The translations under genes were made by a program, and so were the position numbers. Of a DNA stretch of 64,000 nt, positions 3,611 through 49,129 are shown piece after piece. The stretch's first letter is position 1; each line of letters opens with the position of its first letter. The stretch lies in the NCBI GenBank assembly GCA_033286805.1, contig GCA_033286805.1_4727.1; one strand, 5' to 3'. The stretch comes from a phage. The notes beneath the pieces are model-generated. The model did no database searches, was not told the origin of the DNA, and saw only the letters and a program-made list of their open reading frames with translations.

Positions 3611-3628
3611 GCAAATGGATGGGGCGGA

Positions 3629-3937: not shown

Positions 3938-3942
3938 CTCTC

Positions 3943-4275: not shown

Positions 4276-4280
4276 GTTAT

Positions 4281-4649: not shown

Positions 4650-5280
4650 TGATACCTTCTATTAGTTGTACAGCAACTTCTTTTTCGGTGCTATAAAAGA
4701 ACTTGCGGTGGAACTGAACAAGAAGCTTTTCGAATTTACATTGAACGATCTTTTTGCGTTCGATATGACCCAGGGAGAGCAAAGCACCCATGCAACGTAC
4801 CGCTTGTTCGAGAACCTGTTTCGCGGTATCGTGATCGTCCGGTAACGGTAAATCTTCCTCGTCATCTTTAGCGATAAGACGTCTAATGATGTTATCGATA
4901 CGTATCTCATCACCGTTAATGAAAGCGCCTTTCTCCCATTCATCAAATCGTTGATGGATTCGACGTTGTAAGTTGGCCCTGTCTTCCGTTAACTCTTTCA
5001 ACTGGCTTTCTAAGTGGGATACGGTACGGCGGTCGGTTTCAGTGAAGTTTTCCGATTCTTTGTACCACCAATCGTTACGCGCTTGTAAGTCATTAATGCG
5101 AGAAATCGTCCGACGACACTCGTTAACAAACGCATCGCCGTTCGATAGCTCCGTACCGAAATAGCATTTGTATTTATAACGCATAACACGGATTAAACGT
5201 TTCGTTAGAAAACCTTGTTTCTCCAGTTTCTTCTTCAGTTGGGTGTATTTCTCTTCTTTTGTTTCCGCGATATCTTTCAT
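4636..5280 (-). CDS. hypothetical protein
   Basis: 214-aa ORF, charged/coiled-coil-like composition. Confidence 0.5.
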   Translation of the reverse strand: MKDIAETKEEKYTQLKKKLEKQGFLTKRLIRVMRYKYKCYFGTELSNGDAFVNECRRTISRINDLQARNDWWYKESENFTETDRRTVSHLESQLKELTEDRANLQRRIHQRFDEWEKGAFINGDEIRIDNIIRRLIAKDDEEDLPLPDDHDTAKQVLEQAVRCMGALLSLGHIERKKIVQCKFEKLLVQFHRKFFYSTEKEVAVQLIEGINEVK

Positions 5281-6210: not shown

Positions 6211-6537
6211 TTAATGCAGTTGCTTCTTAAAACCTAATTTAAGAAGCGTCATTCTCTTGTCGATGGTATCTAATGCTTCCAGCAAGGATTCACGCTGTTC
6301 TTTCGTAAGCATATCGACGCGTAGACGTTCGTTAATTTCTGCTTTAAGCTGTATAGGAAGGGTTTGTGTAAGTATGCTATCAGCCTCCATCTCGTAACTA
6401 TTTTTCGGTGTGGGTAATGCTTCAGTAACACCGGTGAGATAAAAACCGATAGTGGTTACTCGTTCATCCATTGCTTCTAGCAGTTCAGAACTTACTTCAT
6501 CCACGATAGTTCTCCGTATTAGGGTGGGCGTACCCAC
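6211..6537 (-). CDS. hypothetical protein
   Basis: 108-aa ORF. Confidence 0.45.
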   Translation of the reverse strand: MGTPTLIRRTIVDEVSSELLEAMDERVTTIGFYLTGVTEALPTPKNSYEMEADSILTQTLPIQLKAEINERLRVDMLTKEQRESLLEALDTIDKRMTLLKLGFKKQLH

Positions 6538-6551
6538 CCTCGGTTGTTAAT

Positions 6552-7571
6552 TTACACCGCCACCTTAGCCTTGATAGCGGGGTGTGATTGATATCCGACG
6601 AACACAAAGTCTTCGTAACGGTAATCCGTAATACTTTCCGGTTTACGTACGATTGTTAGCTTCGGTAATGGGTACGGCTCACGGCTGAGCTGCTCTTTAA
6701 CCTGTTCGAAGTGGTTATGATAGATGTGGCAATCTCCACCCGTCCACACGAACTCACCAACGTCCATATTCAGCTGTTGGGCAAGCATATGCGTCAGCAA
6801 CGAATATGAGGCGATGTTGAACGGTGTTCCGAGCAACACGTCCTGTGATCTGGCTAACAGCATACAAGACAAGGCACGTGTTGGTACGTTATGCGCATTC
6901 AACCAAAGTTCCGTTTCACTATGTCGTACATCATCCGTAACCCACTGGGTTCTTAATACGTCGTTGCGTTGAACATAATCAACGCGTTCATCGACTGTGA
7001 GTTCGTGGGTATAGAACTGATAGAAACTGTGGCATGCTGGAAGCGCCATATCGTCTAAATCGCCTACGTTCCACGCGCTAACGATGATCCGTCGAGAATC
7101 AGGATCTTCTTTAAGCTGACGCATCACGTTTGCGATTTGGTCGTGGTGTTTAACATACAAGAGATGTTTGACCATACCGGCGTCAACAACACCGCAATAC
7201 TCATAGCCGCGTTGCATCAACTCACGAGTACGTTCTGTATCGTGCGGGACAACCATTTTGTAGTCGATCCATTCCCGCCATTGTTTGCCGTAAATAGGTC
7301 CTAGATTCCCTTCTTCGTCAGCCCACTCATTCCAGATGCGAACACCGTTATCCTGAAGATAAGCAACGTTTGTATCACCATTAAGAAACCAGAGCAGTTC
7401 GTGGATAACGCTCTTAAGGTGAATCTTCTTGGTGGTTACCAGCGGGAATCCTTTCTTCAAGTCAAAACGCATCTGACGTCCGAATACGGAACGGGTCCCG
7501 GTGCCTGTACGATCAGCTTTATCACGACCATTATCCATGATGTCTTGCAAAAGGTCCAAATACTGTTTCAT
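6552..7571 (-). CDS. thyA: thymidylate synthase (ThyA) with two internal insertions
   Basis: MKQYLDLLQ...DRTGTGT...FPLVTTKK...[20 protein letters not shown], catalytic-Cys region PACHSF all align to bacterial ThyA; GAGGA SD before ATG. Confidence 0.9.
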
Positions 7572-7771
7572 TTTAATCCTCTAAGTGTTTCAAGTAGTTC
7601 CTGAAATTTATAACGATATTTAGGATCGCTTAACGTGTAGCAGCAACCATGTAACACGTTATACGCGAAATCGGCTTGTAAACCACGAACCTTCGGATCC
7701 AATGATAGATTCAACGGCGCATCATCAAAAATCCACGCCTCAATGTTCTTCTTGGATTCCTTCGTTAACAT
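7568..7771 (-). CDS. hypothetical protein
   Basis: 67-aa ORF, 4-nt overlap with thyA start. Confidence 0.4.
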
Positions 7772-22860: not shown

Positions 22861-25491
22861 TTACAATTCAAAATCTTCATCGATAACACGCTGGGTAAGC
22901 ACTTTGTCGCTGAAGAACTCCACCTTGCGCTGATGGTATTTACGGTGCGCTTCGATAGAAGTACATACCAGATACCAGAACGTTGGCGTCATTCCTTCAA
23001 ACTTCCCTTTCAGCTGACGCAGTCGTCCCAACACCTGAATGTTGCCGGTTCGTGACCCCATCGCTAACGTCATGAACGTCATCACCAAGTCAGGAAGGTC
23101 GATACCGGTACCTGCCGATTTCACGGTTGTAACGCTAATATCGTTATCCAGCAAGACCATGAAATCTTCTTCAGCAGTATAAGGACCGATCTCTAGCTCA
23201 GGAATACGTTCACTGAGATAATGCGACAACGACTTACACATATCAACGGTTGCACAATACACCAGCATCTTCATACCTTCCTGATACTGGTTCATAAAAC
23301 CTTTGATAATAACGGTATAGATGAAGTTAAAGTACGCGAGTTTGAGTTGCTTGTTCTTCATGATAGACTGTTCAAATATCGTGTGCGAATAAGCTCCACC
23401 AAACCCTTTGTATCTGACTTTATCTGTACTGCGTAGTCGATATGTTACCGCATTTACCGCAATGTATTTCTTGTATTCGCCTTTCGCATAACGGGCTTCT
23501 TTCGGATACATCAAATACAGCATCTGTTCGATAAACGGATCATCGGATACCGCTGTTGCCGACAGATAAATGATTTCCGGAATATTGGCGTAACACTTGA
23601 CCTTAAACAAGAAATGCAATGCTTCGTGACACTCGTCATGAATCAGCAAACCTATGCCGGTCTTTTCCCAAAACTCAGCGGGATGGAAGGCATATGGCGC
23701 AACGCAGTTATTCTTCTCGTAGTCCGCAATATAACGTTGGAACATGTTCAAGGAGAACAATGCGATTTTGAAGTCGAGTTCACCCTGTTCAACCAAGGTT
23801 TGAAACTCCAGCATGCTGTAACGAGGAATGTCGGGATGCGGTGGATCCTCCTTAGCGTTCCCGCGTATCTCGATAACATCCCCTGGTTCCATCCCGAAGA
23901 AGTTCAGCAGCGAGCTTCGCCAACCTGGCATATACCGTGGAGAAAGTATAATGCCTGTGCGCACACCCCGTCTAAACACGATTTCCTGCGACATCGCGGT
24001 GTTGTGTGTGACGATAAAGTCTTTCACCACAAACAACGCTGAAGGATCATCGATCGTAATGCAACGTGCATCCGCAACACGGGAAGGTTTGATTGACAGT
24101 ACACGCAGCATACTTTCGAAGTATTGTCCGTCGACAGGACAACGTTCCAGCTTCTTCGGAAGTGTAACGATTTCATGTGGACGTTTATACCGTATCGTAA
24201 CCATGTACGCCAATCGTCCCTTATGTCTTTCCCCCTTGTAGGTGTAATACGGTTGTTTAATACGTAGACGAGCATATCCACCGATCGAACGAACCAAGTA
24301 GATAACGTCATCTGAAAGCTGTTTGCTCGAAGTACAGAAAACAATAGATCCGCCTTTATCTACCGTTCCGTCGGTATCGATAAGACCTGCAAGTATTTCG
24401 CAACGCTGTCTATGCGACGCCATCATGTACTGTTTCGGAACAAACTTCTCCCAGGCTCGTTTACCCATCAACCCCAACTGATCAAGCGCGGATGCTGTCT
24501 CCGACCGCCCACCGTAATTGATTAACGTTGCGGCAGGCGTCTTCGTTACCGCATAGTCGTATTTGTCACGGTACTGTATTTCACAGTCATCAGGAAGACG
24601 ACTTAACACCTTATTCAAGATGAAATCGTCAGGAGTTGTAATGATTGGAGATGTCGTTAAATGACCGTCCCCTAACAGAACACCAAGCACGTACGGATCA
24701 AGCGGTAAATCTGCATCAGGAGTATCCTCAGACTCACAATACGGAATGTAAAGTCGTTTATTGGACAGCTCCAGGATACGAATCATCTCAAGTGTATTGA
24801 TAACCCGCATGGGATAAGGATTGTTTTTGTCCCATCCCCAGTTAGGTCTCATGCACGCCCAGAGATGCTCGCCGCAGGCTTCAACACGACGACCGTCAGC
24901 AAAGACAATCTCATAGAGCTGTTTTGCTTTATGGTCGAAGATATTGGTTACCTTCGTTGGTCGGCCATTAGCAGCCGTGATGGTATCACCTAGCTTCAAA
25001 TCGCCTAATTGACGCCATCCGCCAGGGACTTTTACGAGCGTGGTAAGCGGATTCGCTTTACCAGACCCCGTTTGAGCGGTGTTTAGGCTCATTCTGAAGG
25101 GGGTATCCTTACCCCCGTTCATGTACTCCAGCCATTCTTGTTGATCTTCACGCCACGGAAACTTCCATTTCTTTACGAACTCCACTTCCTTACCTGGTAC
25201 CGGATCGTGATAAACGATTTCCAACCACTCTTTTCGGATTCCTCGAGAGAAGATAAAATCCAAAAACGATTTCAACTGTTCGCGGAGTAAGTATACCTCG
25301 CTATAATCGCTTCTCGCTGCGGCGTAGGTGTTAATGGTATCGGTGACCATTCTCCGTGTACGAGGGTCGCGTCGTTTCCGTAGATGCAAACAACGGTCTC
25401 GAAGGTAATGGCCAATCAAATGGGCAAATCGAAGTCCGTATCCGCTCAGCCTCATGCCATGCGAGAAGACGTCGATACGAGCTAACTTCAT
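22861..25491 (-). CDS. DExH-box SF2 helicase precursor containing an intein
   Basis: Walker A split as TGSGK|...|TAM; after the insertion: DExH LLIHDECHEA, VKSAGTGIDLPDL, motif VI LGRLRQ; ATGA overlap with upstream gene. Confidence 0.75.
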   Translation of the reverse strand: MKLARIDVFSHGMRLSGYGLRFAHLIGHYLRDRCLHLRKRRDPRTRRMVTDTINTYAAARSDYSEVYLLREQLKSFLDFIFSRGIRKEWLEIVYHDPVPGKEVEFVKKWKFPWREDQQEWLEYMNGGKDTPFRMSLNTAQTGSGKANPLTTLVKVPGGWRQLGDLKLGDTITAANGRPTKVTNIFDHKAKQLYEIVFADGRRVEACGEHLWACMRPNWGWDKNNPYPMRVINTLEMIRILELSNKRLYIPYCESEDTPDADLPLDPYVLGVLLGDGHLTTSPIITTPDDFILNKVLSRLPDDCEIQYRDKYDYAVTKTPAATLINYGGRSETASALDQLGLMGKRAWEKFVPKQYMMASHRQRCEILAGLIDTDGTVDKGGSIVFCTSSKQLSDDVIYLVRSIGGYARLRIKQPYYTYKGERHKGRLAYMVTIRYKRPHEIVTLPKKLERCPVDGQYFESMLRVLSIKPSRVADARCITIDDPSALFVVKDFIVTHNTAMSQEIVFRRGVRTGIILSPRYMPGWRSSLLNFFGMEPGDVIEIRGNAKEDPPHPDIPRYSMLEFQTLVEQGELDFKIALFSLNMFQRYIADYEKNNCVAPYAFHPAEFWEKTGIGLLIHDECHEALHFLFKVKCYANIPEIIYLSATAVSDDPFIEQMLYLMYPKEARYAKGEYKKYIAVNAVTYRLRSTDKVRYKGFGGAYSHTIFEQSIMKNKQLKLAYFNFIYTVIIKGFMNQYQEGMKMLVYCATVDMCKSLSHYLSERIPELEIGPYTAEEDFMVLLDNDISVTTVKSAGTGIDLPDLVMTFMTLAMGSRTGNIQVLGRLRQLKGKFEGMTPTFWYLVCTSIEAHRKYHQRKVEFFSDKVLTQRVIDEDFEL
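24001..25056 (-). mobile_element. intein (352 aa) with LAGLIDADG homing-endonuclease domain, Ala-1 / WCT-type (class 3-like)
   Basis: Begins ANPLTTLVKV after GSGK, ends FIVTHN before T; LLGDGHL and ILAGLIDTDG motifs; block B GEHLW, block F Cys (RCITIDD), Thr before HN. Confidence 0.65.
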
Positions 25492-37761: not shown

Positions 37762-38595
37762 TCAGCGGAACATGTCCAACAGAAAACGTTTTGCAAAGGG
37801 GTCACGTAACTGGTTGACGCCAAAGCGCGTACGGTCTTCCGTTGTTAATGGATTCCACTGACTCTGTTTCGCAAGATCTAACAGCATCCTTTTTATTTTC
37901 ACCGGCCCACTGTTAAACTGTACGGCTTGGTCACCGAACGTTCCCAAGGTCATCTTTGTAAATGGAAGATTCGCAACCTCTGGACGATCCCCACCAGTAA
38001 GTTTAGTCGACCACTGATGTTTTCGTTTCAAGGTTCCGGTATGGCTCTCTACCAAAATAAGTTCACCAAAACCGGTTCTTGCCAACAAGTCAGAAACATA
38101 GTGCGTGGTGATATACGATGTCTTGGTTATCGCGGGTAATTTACAATCCATCGATTCGATATTAGGGAGTCGATCTACAGACGCCATTAACCCACGATAA
38201 AGTGTCGCGAGTCCTTTTTGTTTTTCGGTGTGTGGCTCCTTATGTATAGCGTGCGGATAAACACGCTTTATTGATGCGTAGGTTGGCGCATATATCCGCA
38301 AGCGAATATGAGGAACGAGTTCATTCACCAGCTGCCTTAGCTGCAGTAATTCGTTTTGAAAATCCCCCGTTATCGTCGACAACGGTAATTTATGTTGTTC
38401 AACGTCTTCAAAGCTTTCAACGAAATTGCGTGCTAAAGTACGCAGGTTGAACAACCAATCCATCGGTGTTTCTGGCTGTTGCTGCACTGCGGATAGTGTT
38501 GCTGATGTCCCTACCGATAAAGGATAATCACCTAACGTGCGGGCGTACATATCGCTCATACCCCACAACTCCTTCTTATCATGGCAACGTATCAA
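37762..38595 (-). CDS. hypothetical protein
   Basis: 277-aa ORF. Confidence 0.5.
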   Translation of the reverse strand: MIRCHDKKELWGMSDMYARTLGDYPLSVGTSATLSAVQQQPETPMDWLFNLRTLARNFVESFEDVEQHKLPLSTITGDFQNELLQLRQLVNELVPHIRLRIYAPTYASIKRVYPHAIHKEPHTEKQKGLATLYRGLMASVDRLPNIESMDCKLPAITKTSYITTHYVSDLLARTGFGELILVESHTGTLKRKHQWSTKLTGGDRPEVANLPFTKMTLGTFGDQAVQFNSGPVKIKRMLLDLAKQSQWNPLTTEDRTRFGVNQLRDPFAKRFLLDMFR

Positions 38596-39721
38596 GCCAA
38601 GCAGAAACCTTTAAGGCGTCAACGTTCGGGTATTTATTACGGATGCGTTCAACCAACAAACGCTTAACGTTGTCCTTTGTCAAGTCCCCACCTTTCTCGA
38701 TAACGTTATTGACAAAACTGTTCTTTAATAGCGACTGGTTGTTCTTGGCATCCGTTTTAATTGACCAGACAAAGCCCGGATACAAAGAAGGGATAGAACG
38801 AAACGTTTTCGCTGCGTCGTCTTCCTTATCGCAGCGTATTCGAATATGATCGCCCTTCTTCAATGGAGCCAATTCCCGTTCCAACACACGGACAATTTCA
38901 TCTCCAACAAGACCATGCAGTTTTATCGTCTTATAGACATCTGCTTTCTTGTTCTCAACAAATTCCCACTGGTCGTTAAACGATTCTGTTAACGTATAAC
39001 GGAGATACCCCTTTGGACCTTCTTCGCCATGCGCCAAGCGACCAAACGAACCGCCAACCATGATACGTCCTTTCTGGGATTGTAAGTGGATATGCCCGCT
39101 CACAATCCATCCCTGGGTCTTCTCTACCATTGAGTTATACGCATCACTGCTATGAACACATGTTGCTTTTAACGCTTCTGGTGGAAGCTGATATTCAAAC
39201 GCACCGTGCATCAGAATGAAGTCTGGCGATCCCTTCTCATCAATAAGTCGGTTCACGGCCGACAACGTCACATCCGGATCGTGGCTGTAGTTATCTGGAA
39301 GATAAAGCACTTTTAAACCAAAGTCTTCATCAACCATGCAGAGGTCATCGTAATAACGAACTTTCGCTCCTATCTCCATGACCTCGTTCTGTTCAACGAA
39401 CCACTGACTTTGCTTCTGGTCGTGTAAATTGGTACCCTCAAGAAAGATCAACGTAATATCGTGTTTTCTCGCATACCGTAACAACCAGGTACCCCAGGCA
39501 CGAACAGCAACCACATCACTCGTCACAAATGTCGTAATACGATCGAAGACATCGCCACTGAACGTAATCACATCAAGCAGCGCAGGATCTTCTTTTGTAA
39601 TGTAATAACGCAGTTGGCTAATCAGGTTTACTGTCGGTGTTTGACGATGGATAAAGTGAATATCCGACAAATTGATTCCACGTAATACCCCAGGCGTTTT
39701 ATTTCGACTGAAGTCTCGCAT
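38579..39721 (-). CDS. SbcD/Mre11-like metallophosphoesterase nuclease
   Basis: Motifs INLSDIHF, FSGDVFDR, LEGTNLHD, LMHGAF, VSGHIHLQ in canonical order. Confidence 0.55.
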   Translation of the reverse strand: MRDFSRNKTPGVLRGINLSDIHFIHRQTPTVNLISQLRYYITKEDPALLDVITFSGDVFDRITTFVTSDVVAVRAWGTWLLRYARKHDITLIFLEGTNLHDQKQSQWFVEQNEVMEIGAKVRYYDDLCMVDEDFGLKVLYLPDNYSHDPDVTLSAVNRLIDEKGSPDFILMHGAFEYQLPPEALKATCVHSSDAYNSMVEKTQGWIVSGHIHLQSQKGRIMVGGSFGRLAHGEEGPKGYLRYTLTESFNDQWEFVENKKADVYKTIKLHGLVGDEIVRVLERELAPLKKGDHIRIRCDKEDDAAKTFRSIPSLYPGFVWSIKTDAKNNQSLLKNSFVNNVIEKGGDLTKDNVKRLLVERIRNKYPNVDALKVSAWLDTLP

Positions 39722-40503
39722 CAGAATTCCTCTAGGTTGCTGCTGCTAATAGTCCCCGTCGTAGACGGCATGTTTCTACTGCTCGCTGACGCAGTTGTTG
39801 AAGAAGTTCTGGCTAGATTCAATCCATTTAATAACCCACGCTCTTTTACTGTACGACGTGAACCATCACGAACGTCGTAAAGGGGTACGTTATAATGGTC
39901 AAAAATCCGAAGCCATTGCACGTAATCAGCAACAACATGGTCTTTGCTTTCATTCGGGGCAAAGCGATCAAGCTGATGGTCGACGTAAGCTTTAGCGCTT
40001 TCAGGATTGAAGTTATACTGTCGACGTGCTTTGTCCACCATCGCGAGGAAACACGTGTTGGGGTCACGATTGATGTATGAACGCGTCCTGATAAAGATAG
40101 CCGGTACCGTAAACAGAACCTTGTTGTTATTCCCATCAGCAACGATGTTAACCGCACGATGTGGTTGGCCTGCTATCTTGCACCAATCGTGAACAATGGT
40201 GCTATTACTCAGCATCTCCGCGTATTCAGGATCCTGCGAAAACATTCCTGCGAACGGATACAAGAAATGTTTAACAAACAGCGACTCAGGCAGGATGTTG
40301 GGACGCGTCATCTCCTGTAAACCTTTTCGTAGAAGCTCGCTGTTGTCTACCAGCTCCTGCCACATGTCCGGTCGTGTTTTCGGGATGGACGGATCCTGAG
40401 CGCGGCGAATGCGCTCTTCCTCATTTACAACCACTACCCCAGCCGGATACCCCAATAAATCCGTTCCTTCGCTAACGTTGCTGTTAGTTTGGCGCGCCTT
40501 CAT
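39721..40503 (-). CDS. hypothetical protein
   Basis: 260-aa ORF. Confidence 0.5.
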   Translation of the reverse strand: MKARQTNSNVSEGTDLLGYPAGVVVVNEEERIRRAQDPSIPKTRPDMWQELVDNSELLRKGLQEMTRPNILPESLFVKHFLYPFAGMFSQDPEYAEMLSNSTIVHDWCKIAGQPHRAVNIVADGNNNKVLFTVPAIFIRTRSYINRDPNTCFLAMVDKARRQYNFNPESAKAYVDHQLDRFAPNESKDHVVADYVQWLRIFDHYNVPLYDVRDGSRRTVKERGLLNGLNLARTSSTTASASSRNMPSTTGTISSSNLEEF

Positions 40504-40891
40504 TTACTTCCTCCTGCCACTTGATAAAATTACCACGCTCGGATCGCAGAACACCGCCCAAATCGTACGATATACCTTTCTCTGTGACAATCCCACCAAT
40601 CTGGAGATCAACACGTTCCGTCGTCGGATCGATATACTTGACACGGACTTTCAATTCCACGCGATCGTAATAACGCATTAAATAATCATACAACATCCGG
40701 TATGTCGCATCTTCCAATTTGGGTGCGCTATACTGCGATGTTGCAATGAGGTACGGTAGTGAAACGATAGAGCCTTGGTAGCAATACGACTGGGAATAAT
40801 TCGATATTGCAAAATTGGTCATTAATCCATCCAGCTTTTTTCCCGACGCGGTTAAAAAGCTCGACAGTCCCGGTAACGGATTCGATGCCAT
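40484..40891 (-). CDS. hypothetical protein
   Basis: 135-aa ORF. Confidence 0.45.
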   Translation of the reverse strand: MASNPLPGLSSFLTASGKKLDGLMTNFAISNYSQSYCYQGSIVSLPYLIATSQYSAPKLEDATYRMLYDYLMRYYDRVELKVRVKYIDPTTERVDLQIGGIVTEKGISYDLGGVLRSERGNFIKWQEEVNEGAPN

Positions 40892-40904
40892 GAGGAACTC
40901 CTCT

Positions 40905-41444
40905 TTAAGCGTAATTCATTCCAACCAATCTATCGTAGTTAGGCATATGCCCTAACTCCAGTTCGACGGGCATGGATACATTGGTGCGTGGCGCGTAAAA
41001 TGTTCGCGTATGCATATCGATATACCCACAGTCCAAATAAACAATATCGGACAACTCCGCTGGATGTTTAGGTGCGGGAATCTTTAAGCGATTGTAACAC
41101 TCAAGCTGCCACCAGGCATGAAAAAAGTTATTGTAGGCGTACGATTTACTGTTGGCAACTTTAAGTCCGTAGATCACCCATAACGCCGCCATGAAGTTGG
41201 TCGCGTTAATTCGCATCGGTTGTTCATTATTGAGCATGTGCGTGTAGGTAAACAACGGTGTGTTACCATCACCGAAACGTCCGACTAAGGTATTGTTCGT
41301 GTGTTCGACCTCAAAGGAAAAATGCTGGCTGCTATTGCCATCAAAATGGATCATTCCGTTCTCCTCAAGCTTTTTCATTTCATAGAGTGGTGGAAATTCG
41401 TAGAAAGTTACAAAAATAAAAAAGAATGGGCAGCCCCTCCCCAC
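40905..41444 (-). CDS. hypothetical protein
   Basis: 179-aa ORF. Confidence 0.45.
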   Translation of the reverse strand: MGRGCPFFFIFVTFYEFPPLYEMKKLEENGMIHFDGNSSQHFSFEVEHTNNTLVGRFGDGNTPLFTYTHMLNNEQPMRINATNFMAALWVIYGLKVANSKSYAYNNFFHAWWQLECYNRLKIPAPKHPAELSDIVYLDCGYIDMHTRTFYAPRTNVSMPVELELGHMPNYDRLVGMNYA

Positions 41445-41460
41445 CCGAAGGTAGGGAGAG
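41436..41460 (-). terminator. hairpin after 41474-41938
   Basis: CCTCCC...GGGAGAG stem followed by T-rich run on minus strand. Confidence 0.45.
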
Positions 41461-41473
41461 ACCGCAAATATAC

Positions 41474-41938
41474 TTAAACCAAAGCTGCGATAACGTCGTT
41501 AACATTACGGCCTCGCAACTCTGCCGCTAAACGAATAACCTCATCCAGGGAACGGTTTGTACGAATCTTGGCCACTTTCCAATTTTCAGGATACTGTTCG
41601 AAGTTAAGCAACCAAGTCATTACCTTTGCTTGTTCCATACCGTTGAGTTTGATTGTCGTGCGCGGATTGGCTTTGAACCACTTCTTGCTCAGCTGCGCCA
41701 TACGGCGAACAGGGTAAGCGTAAGCGCGAGTCCAGTCTTTGGACAGATTGTCGAGTAATTCACGGTAGCTGCTGTCGTAGTCTTTGTTGATACGACGTAA
41801 TAACCAGTTGGCGGTCATCTGGTAAAGTTTATCATCTTCACGTAACCGCATACCCGCTACTGCTAAATAAATGATAAGACCTGCGCCCAGGATGAGAGAC
41901 AGGATAAACAGAATTTGGGTTTCTTGTGCTAAAGTCAT
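41474..41938 (-). CDS. membrane protein (N-terminal TM helix)
   Basis: ILFILSLILGAGLIIYLAVAG hydrophobic segment; early-promoter-like motif upstream. Confidence 0.5.
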   Translation of the reverse strand: MTLAQETQILFILSLILGAGLIIYLAVAGMRLREDDKLYQMTANWLLRRINKDYDSSYRELLDNLSKDWTRAYAYPVRRMAQLSKKWFKANPRTTIKLNGMEQAKVMTWLLNFEQYPENWKVAKIRTNRSLDEVIRLAAELRGRNVNDVIAALV

Positions 41939-42024
41939 TTTATTATCCTCGGATTTCGTTAGGATTTAATTTCCAATATAAGGGCAATGTGATATGCCTT
42001 ATACAGTCGATTGATGTTGTACAT

Positions 42025-42050
42025 CACTTAAGTAATATAGCCGTGAAAAA
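42025..42050 (-). promoter_or_regulatory. early-promoter-like motif copy 3
   Basis: Minus-strand TTTTTCACGGCTATATTACTTAAGTG upstream of 41474-41938. Confidence 0.45.
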
Positions 42051-42057
42051 TGTTGGA

Positions 42058-42855
42058 TTAACGTGTTCTCCTATCACGATGCGTATACGACTGAAGACCG
42101 ATGTCCATATGCGGTAACGTCAGCGTCTGCCAGATCTGTCGTGCGTAGCGATCGAGCGTATGATCATCAGTAACACAATCGACGGGTTCGATGAGGTGAG
42201 TCGTATACTGGCTTTTCTCAGAGAAAGGTTCGATGTTAGCTGTATCTCCTAATCCGCTTTTCACCGTGAAGACAAGACGTGTGACTATCATCGCCTTATG
42301 TTGCTGTTCGTTATAACGAAGGCTGCGGTATACGGCATAGCTTCCTCCTTTTAGGCTTCGGGTATAACGAAGGTCGGAGGTCGTCTCGGAAATCTGATAC
42401 AGCATCCAGTCCAACGTATCACGCCAGTACGCATCATCCACATCAGGAACCGTGATACCGTATCGCGTAGGCAGCAGTTCTAAAAGCAATTTATAAAGTC
42501 CGCGACGCAGACCATGCTCTTCTGTTTCCGATAAACCGTTTCCAACGTAACGTGAAATACGCGTACGTAAATACGTACGGATGAACATATTCGCCATCAG
42601 TGTTTTCACTCTGCTACTTGTATCCTCAAAGCGATCAACGCTGAAACTCGTTTCAATCAGCCGTCCATTAAAATACAATGCGGCAACATACATCGCGTTA
42701 TTGCTATCACGTTCAATGTTTAAACGACCGCAGATATTGGCTGCGTCGTTCATGGTAAATTCTAATTTATCGTGTTCGATACGATAGATAATATCCTCTT
42801 GGGTTGCCAGGCTCGCAATGCGACGGTAGCCCGGAGAAGTACGTTTTACACTCAT
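42058..42855 (-). CDS. hypothetical protein
   Basis: Start set to ATG 42855 (MSVKRT) with GAGGA SD; track start 42894 is the ATG inside the TTTATGCCG motif. Confidence 0.5.
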   Translation of the reverse strand: MSVKRTSPGYRRIASLATQEDIIYRIEHDKLEFTMNDAANICGRLNIERDSNNAMYVAALYFNGRLIETSFSVDRFEDTSSRVKTLMANMFIRTYLRTRISRYVGNGLSETEEHGLRRGLYKLLLELLPTRYGITVPDVDDAYWRDTLDWMLYQISETTSDLRYTRSLKGGSYAVYRSLRYNEQQHKAMIVTRLVFTVKSGLGDTANIEPFSEKSQYTTHLIEPVDCVTDDHTLDRYARQIWQTLTLPHMDIGLQSYTHRDRRTR

Positions 42856-42897
42856 GATTGTCCTCGTTTTCAATTTTAAGATTGCATGCGGCATAAA

Positions 42898-42922
42898 CCC
42901 TCCCCGCCTTATGCAGGGAGGG
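42898..42922 (-). terminator. GC-rich hairpin followed by TTTATGCCGC motif
   Basis: CCCTCCC / GGGAGGG stem after stop of 42938-43576. Confidence 0.5.
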
Positions 42923-42937
42923 TAGCCATTAAATGGA

Positions 42938-43576
42938 TTAACCTAATTTACCACCGGCGATGTTGGTGAAATCTTCGCCATCAGGAACTTGCAGTAGGAT
43001 ACGTGCCATGTCCCAGTTGGTTAATGTAATTGCTTTATCATCGATACTCAGTTCTGGTAGGTCGAGTTCATGATCATCAAACTCGTAGGAAATACTCCAC
43101 GTTTCGTCTGTTTTAGGATCGGTTATCAACACACCGTCTGTTACACGCATGTAGTCCGGATGCAATTCATTACTGAATGTGCTGAACGGATCGGTGTAAC
43201 ACTCAGCATACCCCTCGATCTGCTGACGCTGTGCCTTCGTACGTAATTCAGGGCACGCCATGATCAGTTGTCGAGATATGCCGTTTGCAGCACGGAAGTC
43301 TTCCACGGTGTTACATGGCATAACCACATCGTCATGGAAGATGTTCTCCGATTGTCTCAGCAAAGTCTTACGGAGTTCAGCATAGTTTATCTGATTGAAT
43401 GCATCGAACGTTGCTAACGATTCAGCGTAAAAATGCTTTACGTGTTCGCTCGCGCCGCCGAGGCTATTCATCAACTTGTGTCCATACTCCATGAAGCTTT
43501 TATCGAGACCGGAGGACATTTCTCCGAACCTCAGTGCACGATAACTGTCTCGTCCACCTGTAAATATTTGCGCCAT
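42938..43576 (-). CDS. hypothetical protein
   Basis: 212-aa ORF. Confidence 0.5.
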   Translation of the reverse strand: MAQIFTGGRDSYRALRFGEMSSGLDKSFMEYGHKLMNSLGGASEHVKHFYAESLATFDAFNQINYAELRKTLLRQSENIFHDDVVMPCNTVEDFRAANGISRQLIMACPELRTKAQRQQIEGYAECYTDPFSTFSNELHPDYMRVTDGVLITDPKTDETWSISYEFDDHELDLPELSIDDKAITLTNWDMARILLQVPDGEDFTNIAGGKLG

Positions 43577-43591
43577 TACAGGCGTCCTCCT

Positions 43592-43816
43592 TTAGCAATG
43601 GTTGTTAGTTGCTTCTATTTCGTCAAGATAAGGTTCTACGTCATCGCCCTCCACGAATTCGTTGAACCAACAGTCAATGGTAGAAATAACCGGTGACTGG
43701 TGTTCACATTTCTTAGATACCTTAAAAGGTACGTTATTATCCATCATACCGAGTTCGGGTCGGAATCTCCCGAAATGTTTCGCAGTCCAAATGTCTGGGA
43801 CGATATGGTTGTTCAT
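43592..43816 (-). CDS. RNA polymerase beta-prime N-terminal fragment, proposed exon 3
   Basis: Translation MNNHIVPD...GMMDNNVPF matches the bacterial beta-prime segment directly after NADFDGD (QMAVHVPL...ALMMSTNNILSP). Confidence 0.5.
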   Translation of the reverse strand: MNNHIVPDIWTAKHFGRFRPELGMMDNNVPFKVSKKCEHQSPVISTIDCWFNEFVEGDDVEPYLDEIEATNNHC

Positions 43817-44173
43817 CAATATCTTCAATACGAATCGCTACTTCGTATCCGCAGCATTACCTGCAGCTCCTGGTGTTACCAGGATGTTGAGAGTATATCA
43901 TGTCCATATTCCAAATGGAACGTAGGACTTCCGCGCTGGATCTCGCTTGAGACCGCTTACTCGTTGAACGTTCTCCTAAACGGAGCTTCGCTGCTGATTG
44001 GACATTGTTACGTACGGTAGGCGTCCCATTAAAGGGATTTTCATTGAAGCCGCGTACATCCGTTACCTTGTTTCTACCTTATCGGTTCCTCTTACGAGGC
44101 GTAACGGCTTTAGCCTATTCCAGCAATTCACGGAATGCATATTCTCCTTTTCAGGAGATAAGGCCATGGCTCT
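43817..44173 (-). ncRNA. intervening sequence 2 (putative self-splicing intron, group I-like; boundaries approximate)
   Basis: Paralog of IVS1: shared 3' end ...CCTGGTAACACCAGGAGCTGCAGGTAATGCTGCGG...GAAGATA..G and hairpins with compensatory changes; ends in G. Confidence 0.4.
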
Positions 44174-44191
44174 GGCATCACCGTCAAAGTC
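44174..44191 (-). CDS. RNA polymerase beta-prime proposed micro-exon 2 encoding DFDGD(A)
   Basis: Minus-strand GAC TTT GAC GGT GAT GCC; in-frame TGA three codons upstream so it cannot be reached by read-through from exon 1. Confidence 0.45.
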
Positions 44192-44541
44192 CACGTATCT
44201 TCAGTATGGTTCGCTACTCCATACCCGCAGCATTACCTGCAGCTCCTGGTGTTACCAGGACGGAGAGATCATCTCATCACCCACGAAGGGTGTTCCGCGC
44301 TACCCTCAGCGAATTCGAGGGACATGATCGTTGAACCTTCCACCGATAATCGGCGGCTAGGCTGCTGATTGAACATTGTACGTTGGGGTGGCATCCTGGT
44401 GCAGGACTGTCGTTGAAGCCTCCCAACATCCACTCACTTATTTCCGCCTTATCGGCTCCCACAAGGGCAGAGTGGCTTTAGCCCGTCTCAGCAATTCACG
44501 GAATTCAAGCTCTTCCTTTCGGAAGGCAGGGCCTCATTTGA
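44192..44541 (-). ncRNA. intervening sequence 1 (putative self-splicing intron, group I-like)
   Basis: 350 nt between ...GYNA codon (ends in U) and DFDGD codons; ends in G; multiple hairpins conserved by covariation with IVS2. Confidence 0.45.
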
Positions 44542-45792
44542 AGCGTTGTATCCCTTAAGGATCATCACGCTTAACCCGATGGTGTTATCCTGCGGATCGC
44601 GTTTAACCTTGGTGATTTCAAGACATTGGTTACTGCTTCGGTCAAGTGATGGGTTTCGAACAAAGCCGCACACAATCCCATCGAACGGTGTATCAGCAAT
44701 AAGCTCATCGTGCAGCTCGCTCATCATCGGATGATAATTACGGACATGTTCCGCAACGAACGCACGTGCCGCTCTTGGCGAATAACCACGATGGAATAAC
44801 TTGGATTGGATATGTTCTTTATTGGTTAAAGTAAATGGTGCGTATGGGAAATGCAGATGATAATAACGATGGTTCGCTGTTATCGAACTGATTACAGTAC
44901 GCGTGGTGAATGGATGTAATGTACCTAATATGTTTTTACGTGTGATACCTTTCTTCTTACCGATGAACTCATCGAAAATTGCTGCGTGGTATTGCAGTAG
45001 CTTCAGTTGTACTTTCGCCATCCAGTTTTCTTTCTTTCTGGCGCTCAAAGGTGTTGTTGGGTGATAGATACTATTCAACGTACCGATAGCATCGATCGCA
45101 CCTTCCATTTTGCTATCTGCATAACGACCGGTCGGCGTATTTTCGATAACGAACATCATGGCCGCAGGAAAGCTGATATACTGACTGAAGAACTTATCAC
45201 GATGGATACGGATGAATTCTCGTAGCGTGTCAACTTTCTCCGTGTTCTTCGGTCCACGTAACGTGGGTCCTTTATACAAGATCTCCATGATACGATCGAA
45301 GTTCTGTATAAAGCTATTTACGCCACGTCGTATCCCGAATGCATCAAATTGCTGCTCTAGATAGTTCTTGAGTTCAATGGGTCGTTTTACATTTGGACGG
45401 TAACTGGCATCAATGAGCCACGTCATCGTTTCAAAGCTTTTGATATTCAACTCGCTTGCCAGCACGAGATGGACCAACGGGTTAATGAACGCATCGATTC
45501 CTTCAGGGACACGCGCCCAGACCGTCGAACGAATCTCTTGTTCTGCTGGGTAGGTTACAACCGTTTTACAGTTTGGACACACCGTGCCGAGTAGCTCACC
45601 ACGATTGTAGAAACCACAACCACATTGTGGTGTGATATCCAACGTATCGCTGGAGTAAACACGGGTGATAAAACTGTTTAATTTCTTCTTCTCTTCGACG
45701 ACTTTTGTATCGTAATCATTCAACAAAATCGGCGTAAAAGGAAGTTCTGCGAGCTGTCTATCGAAACTCACGATATCGAGCATGATGGCCAT
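44542..45792 (-). CDS. RNA polymerase beta-prime N-terminal fragment, exon 1
   Basis: Zinc-binding CGCGFYNRGELLGTVCPNCKTVV (cf. [23 protein letters not shown]), GKKKGITRKNILG...TRTVISS (cf. [23 protein letters not shown]), ends ...VMILKGYNA; AGGAG SD. Confidence 0.65.
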
Positions 45793-45834
45793 GGGGTATC
45801 TCCTACAAATGAAAAAGAACGTTAGGACGTATAA

Positions 45835-45858
45835 GGGAGGGAGGTTGCCCTCCCTCCC
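45835..45858 (-). terminator. hairpin after 45885-47780
   Basis: GGGAGGGAGG-TTGC-CCTCCCTCCC 10-bp stem. Confidence 0.5.
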
Positions 45859-45884
45859 GTCAGATTACATCGAACGTTCTTCCA

Positions 45885-47780
45885 TTAGAACAGGTTGAAT
45901 GCCCCACCCATGTTGTTAACGCCAACATTCGGACGATCGCTACGTGCGTAGATGTTACCGGAGATGTTACCCAGACCACGAGCACGTGCTGCCATGTTAC
46001 CACGAACGGCGGTACCTGCCAGATGCTGGATGTTCTCAGGACGGATGGTGAAGCCAGCATCAGCCGCAGCTTCGATCAGCGCCTGCAGTGCTAACGGATC
46101 GAAGTCGTAACGCATTGCCCAGCCGGTTTGTTCCCAGCTACCAGACAGAACACGATCGATGATTTCGTGACGAGCGACAACACGCTGAGACATCGTCATA
46201 TCGGTACGGTCGAAGCTGTCTTCCCAAGCTTCTACGGTATCCGGGTTAGTGATGTTCATCATGTACAGATCGTCCATATCACGAATATCGTGACGGTGAC
46301 CATCCTGGTGGTTGTAGTAACCCAGCGGGATACGGTTACCGGTAGCGTAGACCAGCGGTTGGCCGTATTGATATTTCTTGCTGAAGCAACCCAGGGTAGT
46401 ATCATCGAAGGCACGGTAGAGTGCTTTGTAACCTTCGGAGATTTCCCGGACTTCACCTTCAACTTTGCCCGTAAAGATCTTCTCAGCCGCCGGGATCATA
46501 CGCAGCAGCCAGCTATACTCGCCTTCTTCTGGTACGTCGATAGAAATCAGCAGAGACGGATACAGAACCTGTTGCAGGAACTTGTAAATCTGCTCGTTGG
46601 TTTGCGTAGACAGATCCAGCGGTGCAGTCACTTCAGGATCCAGCACCATCGCCAGAGCACCTGGGTTATGCGGACCAATACCACGAGCCGCGTTGCTGAT
46701 TAAAGACTGTGCCCATGCCATGCCGCTGTTCAGCGTAGCGATGGTACCAATCAGACCCAGCACGAAGCTGTTCGGTGTGAACGCATCCAGCTCCAGCGGG
46801 TAAACGCTGGTCATCACGTAACGCGGCTGGTATTGTACAGTCGGCGGTACCGGATAGCCGTTAACCAGAACAGGGCCTTGGTTGAAGGTCGGGTTCTGCG
46901 GGCTGTAGGTCAGGTCAATGTAACCGGTGGTGGCGACCAGACGCTGTTGACTATCGTAATCGCTCATCGCTTGACGGATGCGGTTAGAGATAGTTACAGT
47001 GATGTCAGAACGCACAGGGTTACCAACAATATCGCTGTCCTGCATACCGCTGGTGTTGTACTGAACGCTGCTGATTGGCTGATCGCTTGCCATCATGCCC
47101 AGGTTGAACTGCGGCAGACCCAGTTTATCACCGAGACGGATTTCGATCGCGGTTTGGATTGCGTTATCTGCAGCAGACAGCAGGGTGGTTGCCAGATGCG
47201 CAGATTCAGCGGTGATTTCATTGGTCACCACAGCCAGACCAGCGATACGAACAGTACCGTTAGACTTACCGCCAATAGCTGAATACATTGCCGCCATGAC
47301 TTCGTTGATGAACGTACCGTTCAGGTTATCAACCCAGGTACGCGGTACCAGAATGTTACCATGCGGACCTTGTTCTTCACGACGCGGCAGCGGAGCCAGA
47401 CCAGCAACCAGCGGCAGGACGTAACCGAAGAAGTGGTTATGATCACCAACTTTTGCACCGCTCATAACAACCAGGGTCGGATACGGTACGCTGTACTGGT
47501 TCGGGTCAACCGCAACAAAGATGAAGTCGTCTTTGAACTGGGTATCTTCCAGATATTTCTCCATCAGACGACGGAGATTCAGTACCTGCTCGGAGCCGGT
47601 ATTACGGCTGATACGACGGCTCAGTGTACGGTTGATCGTACGCATCGTATGAGTTACTTTAGGACGGTCGGCAAAATCTGCAGCGGTTTCCAGCGCCTCA
47701 TCAGCACGTTGTGCGGTGCGGGTTTCAGCTGCACGAATTTCTACATTATCGTTACCGTTATTACGTACGTCTAAGCCCAT
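45885..47780 (-). CDS. candidate chimallin (phage nucleus shell protein ChmA) or other major early protein
   Basis: 631 aa; early-promoter-like motif upstream; about 11 genes from PhuZ, matching my recollection of Goslar layout; no sequence-level confirmation possible here. Confidence 0.4.
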   Translation of the reverse strand: MGLDVRNNGNDNVEIRAAETRTAQRADEALETAADFADRPKVTHTMRTINRTLSRRISRNTGSEQVLNLRRLMEKYLEDTQFKDDFIFVAVDPNQYSVPYPTLVVMSGAKVGDHNHFFGYVLPLVAGLAPLPRREEQGPHGNILVPRTWVDNLNGTFINEVMAAMYSAIGGKSNGTVRIAGLAVVTNEITAESAHLATTLLSAADNAIQTAIEIRLGDKLGLPQFNLGMMASDQPISSVQYNTSGMQDSDIVGNPVRSDITVTISNRIRQAMSDYDSQQRLVATTGYIDLTYSPQNPTFNQGPVLVNGYPVPPTVQYQPRYVMTSVYPLELDAFTPNSFVLGLIGTIATLNSGMAWAQSLISNAARGIGPHNPGALAMVLDPEVTAPLDLSTQTNEQIYKFLQQVLYPSLLISIDVPEEGEYSWLLRMIPAAEKIFTGKVEGEVREISEGYKALYRAFDDTTLGCFSKKYQYGQPLVYATGNRIPLGYYNHQDGHRHDIRDMDDLYMMNITNPDTVEAWEDSFDRTDMTMSQRVVARHEIIDRVLSGSWEQTGWAMRYDFDPLALQALIEAAADAGFTIRPENIQHLAGTAVRGNMAARARGLGNISGNIYARSDRPNVGVNNMGGAFNLF

Positions 47781-47845
47781 TTGGGATTCCTCTTTTCTTA
47801 AACTTTATTAAATGACGTCATTGAATCAGCTTCTACTCGCTCATT

Positions 47846-47870
47846 CACCTAGGTAATATAACCCTGAAAT
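47846..47870 (-). promoter_or_regulatory. early-promoter-like motif copy 4
   Basis: Minus-strand ATTTCAGGGTTATATTACCTAGGTG ~73 nt upstream of ATG 47780. Confidence 0.45.
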
Positions 47871-48034
47871 TTTTTTCAATATTGGTGTAACCACATTGAA
47901 CGATATAAACCCCCAGGCGAACGCTGCCGAGAAGCAACATTCTTTCTACATATAATCAGGATATGTCTGTAAACTTTTACTTCTCTTATTGAGAGTAAAG
48001 TCATATCCGTTTACCATCTTCTTACGGAGTTCGT

Positions 48035-49129
48035 ATGTTTCGTGTTTTAAATAACCTCCCGCGAACATCATCGGGTGTGCAACCCGTCCCTCAGAAAGAC
48101 TATCTAATACGTGAAGTTCAAAGAAACCTACAGACAATCCAGAACCACTATCAAGGTTTTACCTTCGCGGTTCAGAGCGATCACATCCTTGCATTGCTGC
48201 TCGCACAGCTCCCTATGAGATACGACATCTCAGTACAAACTTACTACGACATGATTCTCGATCTTACGCCAGAATTGGGTAATCGTGTCAAGTTGACAAC
48301 ATCAAGATACGCGGGTAAGTTATTCGACGGTGCTTTCTATCCGGGATTGCACGAAGCTATTATCGCAACCGGTGAAAGTCGTCTTATTTCACGTGATGTT
48401 CTTGACAACTGGCGTAATTGGTCACCAGTTAGAATCGTGACGCACCCATACGCAAATCTTCGTTACATTCCTCTTCACCAAAAGCAGGTTGAAGAAGGAC
48501 GAGGTTTTGCGGTCATTATGGTTGACGTACCTTTATTAGCGCTACAGTATCGAATGTGGTCTTTGGTCATGGGTCATAACGTCGACGGTAAATGGGTGGT
48601 TAAAGAACCGGTTACAAGCTTCCTTGCGAGTTTTCCGTTGGTTAACGTATTATACTCACACAACGATGTTGTTATACGTAATCGTTGTTTGTGGGTATCT
48701 CCGGCTAAGAATCCACTCAAATCACCAATTTACGTTAACGACCTTGATAACGTATTCAGCCAAGTCGTTCTGTCCGTACAGCATCATTTATTACGAAGAA
48801 GACGAAGCTACACCGACATGCTTAAACAGATACCGAGTTTATACGGGGATCAGTACCAAGCAACCCGGATGGGCTATACCGTCGATCTTCGACAAACACG
48901 ATGGGCAAGGGATCTGGGTTGTCTGTCATTATGGCAACAACTCGTCACACTACAAAACGTATCTGAAAGCGTCGGGTTCAGCAGTCAAATCGATAACGAC
49001 CTGTATCGTGCCGCCGACCGAAGTCTAAAAGAAGGTAACTGGGAATCCTCTCCGTTACCTGGCGATTTAAGACGTGAAGTTATCGCACAGGTTGCCGACC
49101 TCTTAAAAATTCTTCCTGCTGGTACATAA
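48035..49129 (+). CDS. hypothetical protein
   Basis: 364-aa plus-strand ORF with GGAG SD; CCGTTTACCATCT motif upstream. Confidence 0.55.
   Translation: MFRVLNNLPRTSSGVQPVPQKDYLIREVQRNLQTIQNHYQGFTFAVQSDHILALLLAQLPMRYDISVQTYYDMILDLTPELGNRVKLTTSRYAGKLFDGAFYPGLHEAIIATGESRLISRDVLDNWRNWSPVRIVTHPYANLRYIPLHQKQVEEGRGFAVIMVDVPLLALQYRMWSLVMGHNVDGKWVVKEPVTSFLASFPLVNVLYSHNDVVIRNRCLWVSPAKNPLKSPIYVNDLDNVFSQVVLSVQHHLLRRRRSYTDMLKQIPSLYGDQYQATRMGYTVDLRQTRWARDLGCLSLWQQLVTLQNVSESVGFSSQIDNDLYRAADRSLKEGNWESSPLPGDLRREVIAQVADLLKILPAGT

Follow-up and report, generated by a model that had tools for sequence, protein, structure and literature searches.

The DNA considered here is a stretch of 64,000 nucleotides (nt) of a phage genome (NCBI GenBank assembly GCA_033286805.1, contig GCA_033286805.1_4727.1), referred to below as the window. 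On its minus strand, it carries the gene for the beta-prime-N subunit of the non-virion RNA polymerase (nvRNAP), a homologue of phiKZ gp55, and this gene is interrupted twice at its catalytic NADFDGD motif. The open reading frame (ORF) for chimallin, the protein of the nuclear shell, is located directly upstream (45885-47780, minus strand). Phage Goslar (Escherichia phage vB_EcoM_Goslar) is syntenic with the window and shares 94.9% nucleotide identity over the 2.6 kb queried and 96-97% over the entire window, with two large indels. Judged by these sequences, the source of the window is a Goslar-like, nucleus-forming jumbo phage of the Chimalliviridae.

All parts of the interrupted gene are encoded on the minus strand. 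Exon 1 (45792-44542) encodes 417 amino acids (aa) up to ...VMILKGYNA, ends with the codons GGA UAC AAC GCU and has U44542 as its last base. The first intervening sequence (IVS1; 44541-44192, 350 nt) lies between GCU (Ala) and GAC (Asp), i.e. at NA^D, and terminates with G44192. It is followed by a micro-exon of only 18 nt (44191-44174; GACTTTGACGGTGATGCC), which reads GAC UUU GAC GGU GAU GCC and is translated into DFDGDA; this short exon (GACUUUGACGGUGAUGCC) contains the catalytic aspartate triad of the universal NADFDGD motif. The second intervening sequence (IVS2; 44173-43817, 357 nt) separates GCC (Ala) from AUG (Met), i.e. DFDGDA^M, and its final base is G43817. Exon 3 (43816-43592) starts with AUG AAC AAC CAU and provides the C-terminal 74 aa, MNNHIVPD...ATNNHC plus the stop codon, which align with the residues of phiKZ gp55 that follow DFDGD (PDB 7OGP chain A).

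The exon-1 ORF (44488-45792) continues beyond GYNA for 17 codons (SNEALPSERKSLNSVNC) into IVS1 before it reaches a stop, and an in-frame TGA is present four codons upstream of the micro-exon. No strong Shine-Dalgarno sequence precedes the ATG of exon 3, whereas exon 1 and the next gene have one. The read-through peptide expected from translation of unspliced RNA is GYNASNEALPSER, and the tryptic peptide predicted across both junctions of the joined protein is GYNADFDGDAMNNHIVPDIWTAK. An initial annotation of this DNA had described the same three coding pieces, namely an N-terminal ORF that runs into a stop after GYNA, a DFDGD piece behind an in-frame TGA and a third piece that starts with MNNHIVPD at 43816. 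This layout is correct, with the middle piece defined as DFDGDA, and the twin interruption at NADFDGD is confirmed.

Joining the three exons produces GYNADFDGDAMNNH, which is collinear with uninterrupted homologues, such as P0002 (65% identity; GYNADFDGDAMNHH) and P0003 (AYNADFDGDEMNNH), so that the expected reconstitution of NADFDGD holds. The spliced protein is collinear with more than 60 uninterrupted homologues; the homologues P0002 to P0071 carry the Pfam domain PF00623, and in all homologues exactly one residue is found between the last Asp and the M/L-N that follows. The joined protein gains a match to PF00623 (RNA_pol_Rpb1_2; 36.9 bits, residues 371-428) that extends across both junctions, and the exon-1 ORF alone has no Pfam match. 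In silico splicing of the five complete coding sequences, from the window, Goslar and the related contigs L079, L094 and L003, which represent three architectures, results in every case in 1494 nt and 497 codons. These five coding sequences are identical in the motif at the protein level and differ between alleles by 34-53 nt and by 0-2 aa.

The boundaries are independently fixed by alleles in which one or the other site is empty. In the contigs L217, L219 and L220, which contain IVS1 only, the sequence downstream of the intron is the uninterrupted GAC UUU GAC GGN GAC GCN AUG AAC (DFDGDAMNNH), and in L217 to L220 the IVS2 site is contiguous (GAC GCG^ATG AAC). Conversely, the IVS1 site is empty in Goslar, where AAU GCC GAC UU (NADF) is uninterrupted. 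Both intervening sequences are therefore present or absent at precisely the same site among close relatives. A search for a wholly intron-less Goslar-type allele or cDNA, i.e. DFDGDAMNNHI as DNA, found none in IMG/VR and returned four metagenome contigs in which the B intron, the Goslar orthologue of IVS2, is the only one missing. A set of 5.8 billion proteins contained no full-length, near-identical 497-aa entry, and the best match was the unspliced exon-1 product; hence, no assembled spliced transcript was found.

The covariance-model scan for introns of groups I and II, which had been suggested as a check, produced matches on both intervening sequences. RF00028 (Intron_gpI) is the only Rfam family with significant matches in the window, and these coincide exactly with IVS1 and IVS2 over the full model length (positions 1-253). 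IVS2 scores 28.0 bits (E-value 7.6e-5 in a 1.2-kb search and 0.004 in the whole window) and IVS1 scores 26.4 bits (2.3e-4 and 0.012, respectively). At Rfam gathering thresholds (50 bits for RF00028), there are zero matches in the 64-kb window, and the introns emerge in E-value mode alone. Large inserted segments, one within P5 and one separating P7 from P3' (P7.1), are a plausible reason for the low scores. Group II introns were rejected: the intervening sequences start with UCAAAU and AGAGCC, no group II family matched at E<=10, and the fold is that of group I. The stops in all frames, the length of about 350 nt and the group I ribozyme fold likewise speak against a group II intron, an intein or translational bypass.

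When IVS1 and IVS2 are aligned with three B introns of the Goslar type, the RNAalifold consensus comprises P1, P2, P3, P4, an extended P5, P6, P7.1, P8, P9, P9.1 and P9.2, and the P7 pseudoknot was added by hand. On this consensus structure, 97.2% of the alignment cells pair, and the core helices of the group I fold (P3-P4-P6, P7-P3'-P8 and the P3/P7 pseudoknot) are 100% paired. Changes on both sides were observed in 32 of the 97 pairs, compared to one or two when the 3' partners were slid by 1-3 columns, and the observed score was reached by none of 500 shuffles. These two-sided changes are distributed over 14 of the 19 helices, P7 among them, which goes far beyond the four compensatory hairpins that had been named initially. 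In IVS1, the P7 pseudoknot (44267-44329) is formed by GAUCA (44329-44325) and UGAUC (44271-44267) and encloses P7.1, P3' and P8; in IVS2 (43891-43962), it is formed by GAGUA (43962-43958) and UACUC (43895-43891), and in the B introns by GAAUA/UAUUC. At the third position of P7, AU, UA or GC is found, and at the fourth UA or CG; each of these is a standard pair. The hairpin P7.1 between P7 and P3' also covaries, with six of six pairs changed on both sides; it is the one hairpin seen in this interval, where subgroup IA would call for extra P7.1/P7.2 helices. Single-sequence folding supports the consensus: the minimum free energy fold of IVS1 recovers P2 to P9.2 (z = -2.43 versus shuffles) and the z value for IVS2 is -3.25.

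As had been noticed initially, the two intervening sequences are homologous and nearly identical at their 3' ends. They are 66% identical over 342 aligned nt and share an identical block of 32 nt (44256-44225 in IVS1, 43880-43849 in IVS2) that covers the 3' part of P9 and P9.1; it has two matches, compared to 0.00 expected from shuffles. Downstream of this block come P9.2, a hairpin that covaries, and the tail UGAAGAU. The same 3' module (P9.1/P9.2/tail) is present in intron X of the three-intron relatives L003 and L094 and in the phiKZ gp55 intron. The P9.2 loop is GUAGCGA-like in all of these 3'-terminal modules (window 44204-44256 and 43828-43880; the 3' end of X in L094; about 1590-1640 in L136, phiKZ). 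Over their full lengths, intron X and IVS1 share no more than 47-49% identity, but they agree in all of 31 nt at the 3' end. The sharing of this module suggests that adjacent introns swap it or that the tail has a conserved role.

For phiKZ, whose homologous intron lies one codon away, the sequence of the joined product is known. In phiKZ, PHIKZ055 ends with ...KAPN and is followed by the HNH gene gp56 (PHIKZ056) and a ribozyme core that ends with CUGAACAAUACG immediately before GCUGAUUUUGACGGCGAU, in frame into PHIKZ056.1; the last intron bases before GCUGAUUUUGACGGCGAU are AAUACG. PDB 7OGP chain A is designated 'PHIKZ055, PHIKZ056.1' and contains the contiguous sequence APNADFDGDQLN, i.e. 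APN joined to ADFDGDQ. The structure of the phiKZ nvRNAP numbers the motif 417-DFDGD-421 (PMC8287921), which fits an exon 1 of 415 aa joined to exon 2. Thus, the sequence of the joined product has already been used in structural work. The phiKZ and window loci share the nvRNAP beta-prime-N gene beside chimallin, the same motif and a homologous ribozyme, with a AAUUGCUGG...CAAUCAGCAG core and a P9.1-P9.2-UGAA tail. They differ in that phiKZ has one intron with an HNH ORF at N^A, one codon upstream, while the window has two introns that lack an ORF.

The splice sites can be assigned from these structures. P1 of IVS1 (44531-44544), based on the RNAalifold consensus and pair counts, consists of exon GCU and intron UC (44544-44540) paired with the guide GAGGC (44535-44531), and its 5' splice site is the canonical wobble U44542.G44533. 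A P10 helix may be formed, by inspection, between UCAAA (44541-44537) and UUUGA of the micro-exon (44188-44184). P1 of IVS2 (44163-44176) consists of exon GCC and intron A (44176-44173) paired with UGGC (44166-44163). Over its whole length, the IVS2 guide CAUGGC (44168-44163) can pair with the ligated junction GCC^AUG, which by inspection would also provide P10, and this places a C-G pair at the cleavage site. The micro-exon takes part in two helices, which do not overlap. The terminal omega-G is present in both introns (G44192 and G43817), with boundaries fixed by the intron-lacking alleles. The initial statement that the exon before IVS1 ends in U and both introns in G thus holds; the micro-exon before IVS2, however, ends in C, and C-G replaces U.G. 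In the alignment, the splice-site pair is UG in five sequences and CG in one. The search by inspection for an alternative 5' splice site of IVS2 with U.G found none: no candidate preserves the reading frame or the spacing of one residue (D-x-M/L-N) that all homologues have. The intron-less relative L004 reads ...GAU GCC AUG AAC at the IVS2 site, and the GCC context may therefore have arrived together with the intron from an L004-like lineage.

Considering these data together, the following pathway is proposed. The beta-prime-N gene would be transcribed as a single precursor containing exon 1, IVS1, the 18-nt exon, IVS2 and exon 3. Both IVS1 and IVS2 would act as ORF-less ribozymes of one family, the phiKZ gp55 intron family, each folding into P1 to P9.2, with the guide GAGGC pairing with GCU of exon 1 and the guide CAUGGC with GCC^AUG. 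Exogenous guanosine would attack the 5' splice site of each intron, and the freed 3'-OH of the exon would then attack after the intron-terminal G. The two reactions would ligate GYNA-DFDGDA-MNNH and generate a subunit of 497 aa whose Mg-binding NADFDGD loop is intact. The P10 pairings in this scheme are predicted. That IVS1 and IVS2 are two group I introns bracketing the DFDGDA micro-exon, as the initial annotation had proposed, is supported by RF00028, the fold, the covariation, the joined frame, the polymorphism and phiKZ; that both are spliced to yield intact beta-prime-N is, in our assessment, very probable.

Several observations weigh against this interpretation. Both RF00028 scores are below the gathering score, and the covariation stems from approximately three intron lineages, with a structure derived from the same alignment. 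The 5' splice site of IVS2, C44174-G44165, deviates from the near-universal U.G wobble and is the sole exception among the ten junctions mapped in the gene family. An ONT-cappable-seq study reported that, under the conditions used, the predicted phiKZ introns yielded no reads indicative of splicing (PMC10914365); despite this, the phiKZ sequence used in structural work requires joining. Finally, we infer from sequence that both introns are actually and autonomously spliced in this phage.

A related aspect concerns translation of the precursor. The UGA that terminates the exon-1 ORF (44490-44488) is located inside helix P4 of IVS1, so that P1 to P4 would be unwound by a ribosome that translates RNA still unspliced. 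One may speculate that this matters less in a phage nucleus, where transcription is kept apart from translation.

Among the alternatives, the one that survives best also considers both elements as group I introns, of which at least one would not be autonomously self-splicing. This applies more to IVS2 because of its C-G splice-site pair. Such an intron could be slow, could depend on an RNA chaperone or maturase of phage or host, or could allow occasional exon skipping, and the direct ligation of exon 1 to exon 3 would then give a catalytically dead subunit. In favour of this explanation are the C(-1)-G pair at the IVS2 5' splice site and the identical 32-nt 3' module of both introns, which could confuse the choice of the 3' splice site; in the engineering of the Anabaena intron, Y (C or U) was accepted at the splice-site position (PMC12355055). 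On the other hand, GCC^AUG is matched by the IVS2 guide CAUGGC at every base, and the GCC allele is found in two genomes that are 3.4% apart (window and L079), which argues for a viable phage. Skipping is disfavoured because the IVS1 guide has no complement at the start of exon 3. Overall, we consider non-autonomous splicing unlikely.

It is far less probable that the allele is defective, with one or both intervening sequences being decayed, non-splicing remnants in a non-viable phage genome. The sub-threshold Rfam scores and the non-canonical 5' splice site of IVS2 would be in line with decay, but 97% of the predicted pairs are maintained via compensatory change and the exons are under strong purifying selection (34-53 nt versus 0-2 aa differences). 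The same arrangement is also present in the independent 237.5-kb contig L079, and the analogous A+B arrangement occurs in Goslar, which has been isolated and propagated. Moreover, the nvRNAP performs middle and late transcription in these phages (PMC8287921).

A truly split gene is highly improbable as well. In this case, the exon-1 product (434 aa), a DFDGD peptide and the exon-3 product (74-78 aa) would assemble non-covalently, and the intervening sequences would be spacers or regulatory RNAs. RNA polymerase subunits of jumbo phages already consist of several polypeptides (PMC7598289), and a start-codon ORF exists for each piece, such as the GTG-started 43-aa ORF at 44063-44194 that contains DFDGD. 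However, neither the micro-exon nor exon 3 is preceded by a strong ribosome-binding site, the Asp triad would be severed from the rest of the catalytic loop at both of its ends, and the supposed spacers carry a conserved ribozyme fold. In addition, uninterrupted homologues and alleles that lack one or the other intervening sequence are collinear to the nucleotide, and the phiKZ subunit is a single joined chain in the solved structures. An assembly artefact, in which IVS1 and IVS2 alleles of a mixed population were fused via the 32-nt repeat, is equally improbable. IVS1-only alleles do exist, and it is exactly at the repeat that the Logan contig L134, with 100% identity to the window, breaks off. 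However, the micro-exon has only 18 nt, so that k-mers of 21 or more connecting the IVS1 3' end with the 5' end of IVS2 can only stem from real reads, and the same junctions are found in the independently assembled L079, with equivalent multi-intron arrays in Goslar, L003, L094 and L126.

Within the Goslar-like phages, the motif displays a pronounced intron polymorphism. The combination of IVS1 and IVS2 is found in the window, in L079 (IMGVR_UViG_3300011560_000001, 237.5 kb), which is 96.6% identical over 10.7 kb and 99.8% over the intron kilobase, and partially in L134. L217, L219 and L220, metagenome contigs of 238-249 kb, contain only the 350-nt IVS1 (97% identical), and L218 contains only intron X, inserted after LKG+U. 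In Goslar, a 13-nt exon (CGACGGUGACGCU) is flanked by intron A, which encodes the HNH/NUMOD1 endonuclease gp186, and by intron B. L003 and L094 combine X, an A intron without ORF, and B, i.e. three introns within 30 nt separated by two 13-nt exons. In the three-intron relatives (L003, 1467-2589; L094, reverse strand; L001, 3425-5235), the 13-nt exons read AUAAUGCAGAUUU and CGACGGNGAYGCU. Between architectures, the 30-nt motif differs at 7-8 positions, all of them synonymous, compared to 2-3% in the rest of the gene (binomial P of about 1e-6). This synonymous excess probably reflects exon co-conversion and/or selection at homing sites, and the introns probably arrived by homing or by recombination with co-conversion of flanking exons.

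Comparison of the window (38100-48900) with L079 revealed 99.3-100% identity at 44700-43200, which includes the introns and their flanks, and at 48000-46800, but 92-94% at 46800-45900 (the 3' half of the chimallin gene) and at 42900-42300. Frequent recombination would fit this mosaic, possibly including a recent exchange of the intron tract. It was also considered whether IVS1 originated when a B-type intron reverse-spliced into a second site with the sequence ACGCU: the IVS1 site of the window and the B site of Goslar both read ACGCU, and their P1-P2 segments are nearly identical. The idea is weakened by the IVS1-only alleles, which have AAUGCU, so that only GCU is required.

Beyond the Goslar-like phages, at least eight insertion sites within approximately 36 nt of the motif can be distinguished across chimalliviruses. 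Introns are inserted at N^A in phiKZ and KpGz_1; at NA^D in the window (IVS1) and in L126 (intron 1); after NAD in P0024, P0030, P0051 and P0063; within the Phe codon in Goslar (A); at NADFDG^D in L125, L126 (intron 2), Erwinia phage pEa_SNUABM_54, P0039 and P0042; after NADFDGD in L157 and possibly L168; at DFDGDA^M (B and IVS2); and at G(U)^AY (X). For P0024, P0039 and P0051, the contigs end within the introns and only the insertion site is readable. L126, whose protein is about 30% identical, has twin introns on either side of a 12-nt DFDG exon (GAUUUCGACGGU), both exceeding the Rfam threshold with 54.8 and 68.3 bits, and the intron within the motif of L125 scores 87.8 bits with RF00028. 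The gene is uninterrupted in most isolates (in 259 of 290 phage records, a single piece spans 80% or more of the query), and the related-locus search was patterned on NADFDGD, which biases it towards uninterrupted genes and provides no frequency of interruption. The interruption of this catalytic subunit is an extreme case of the known habit of mobile introns to settle in active sites. L126 also contains an IS605 OrfB/TnpB-like gene (6519-7751; Cas12f1-like_TNB), some 1 kb downstream of where its split polymerase gene ends.

A second mobile element may reside in the window itself. The ORF at 22861-25491 (minus strand) encodes an SF2/RAD-type DNA helicase and contains an in-frame insertion of 1062 nt (23995-25056) that is absent from Goslar. 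It splits the Walker A motif (..TGSGK^ANPLTT....VTHN^TAMS..) and matches LAGLIDADG_3 (28.4 bits) and Hom_end. This insertion looks like an intein with a homing endonuclease and would thus be another mobile element in a catalytic motif.

Comparison with Goslar (NC_048170: gp247, an annotated Intron_gpI, the HNH protein gp186, and gp185) shows the same gene in a genome that is about 95% identical. The B intron of Goslar is the orthologue of IVS2, at the same site and with 84% identity. In contrast, the A intron is only about 41% identical to IVS1, scores 47 bits with RF00028, encodes the endonuclease and is located 5 nt further downstream, after GAC UU in the Phe codon. The exon-3 product is annotated in Goslar as the separate 'hypothetical protein' gp185, and the B intron and the joined 497-aa coding sequence are unannotated in NC_048170 and MK327938. 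Introns near the catalytic aspartates of jumbo-phage RNA polymerases are already known from PhiPA3 and from phiKZ gp55, gp71-73 and gp180, and one intron of the Goslar copy is annotated in GenBank. In PhiPA3, a group I intron likewise lies beside the conserved-aspartate codons of a multisubunit RNA polymerase gene; this is, however, the virion polymerase, with a single intron that carries the HNH endonuclease gp210 and has a competitive function (PMC11620839), whereas the window introns are free of endonucleases.

The ribozyme core of IVS1 and IVS2 contains an identical 16-mer (AUUCCGUGAAUUGCUG; 44489-44504 and 44136-44121, minus strand) that corresponds to the P3 5' strand, J3/4 and the P4 5' strand. 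It occurs in more than 120 viral contigs; 103 of 124 occurrences are accompanied by the P4' motif and 89 by the J6/7-P7 motif. The unrelated viral contig L053 (IMGVR_UViG_3300031687_000268; also L064) has four RF00028 matches of 83-91 bits in a major-capsid-like gene (2891-4657), and its first two introns are paralogous, contain the P3-P4 16-mer of the window and are separated by an exon of about 90 nt. Based on these matches, the intron family appears widespread in phages and prone to local multiplication. The orf142 gene of phage Twort reportedly contains three introns of group I. For Jug phages, an average of 18.5 introns per genome was described (PMC12880540), and terL and nrdD have multiple introns. 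These genes resemble the window locus in that several paralogous group I introns occupy one essential gene, but their exons, where measurable, are much longer than 12-18 nt and none brackets a catalytic triad. Mini-exons between group I introns are also found in fungal mitochondrial genes such as cox1, where they result from repeated invasion of conserved coding sequence; these introns are organellar, usually aided by maturases or LAGLIDADG proteins, and not placed at the active site of a phage RNA polymerase.

The initial description of the architecture as very unusual therefore needs qualification, because introns at this position are recurrent in nucleus-forming jumbo phages; the packing of several introns around micro-exons, in turn, is apparently undescribed. 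In the searchable literature, we found nothing on two to three introns packed into the motif, on exons of 12-18 nt, on polymorphism among near-identical phages or on the B/IVS2 intron. The mechanism is conventional; what appears to be new is how unusually densely the members of a familiar intron family are arranged at a target of a familiar type.

Introns of the PhiPA3 type take part in the competition between co-infecting chimalliviruses (Birkholz et al., Science 2024, PMC11620839). For any ORF overlapping IVS1 and IVS2 (350-357 nt each), there was no Pfam match, to a homing endonuclease or to any other domain, at E<=1; HNH-type ORFs are present instead in Goslar A and in the introns of phiKZ, L125 and L131. 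A tentative explanation for the pile-up of introns at the motif is that it represents the footprint of an arms race, in which the ORF-less IVS1 and IVS2 are retained as 'shields' because each physically disrupts the recognition site of an endonuclease encoded by a rival phage's intron. Such rivals could possibly be enzymes like Goslar gp186 or a phiKZ gp56-like HNH protein, against which the essential nvRNAP gene would be protected. If this doubtful scenario applied, repeated invasion together with selection for resistance might have left the micro-exons of 12-18 nt and the synonymous excess behind as by-products.

For Goslar-like phages, the current annotation consists of a truncated 'RNA polymerase beta subunit' and a 'hypothetical protein', and misses the B/IVS2 intron and the micro-exon; the true product of the gene would be a 497-aa protein with an intact NADFDGD motif. 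As a case for RNA mechanism, the locus combines a naturally occurring C-G pair at a 5' splice site with paralogous ribozymes, each of which would have to choose the correct sites only 18 nt apart. Five intron architectures within one 30-nt stretch among phages that are more than 94% identical, and at least eight sites family-wide, make it an unusually dense natural experiment on intron mobility, on splice-site specificity with exons of 12-18 nt and on the conflict between introns and endonucleases, which directly extends the work on 'weaponised introns' in PhiPA3 and phiKZ.

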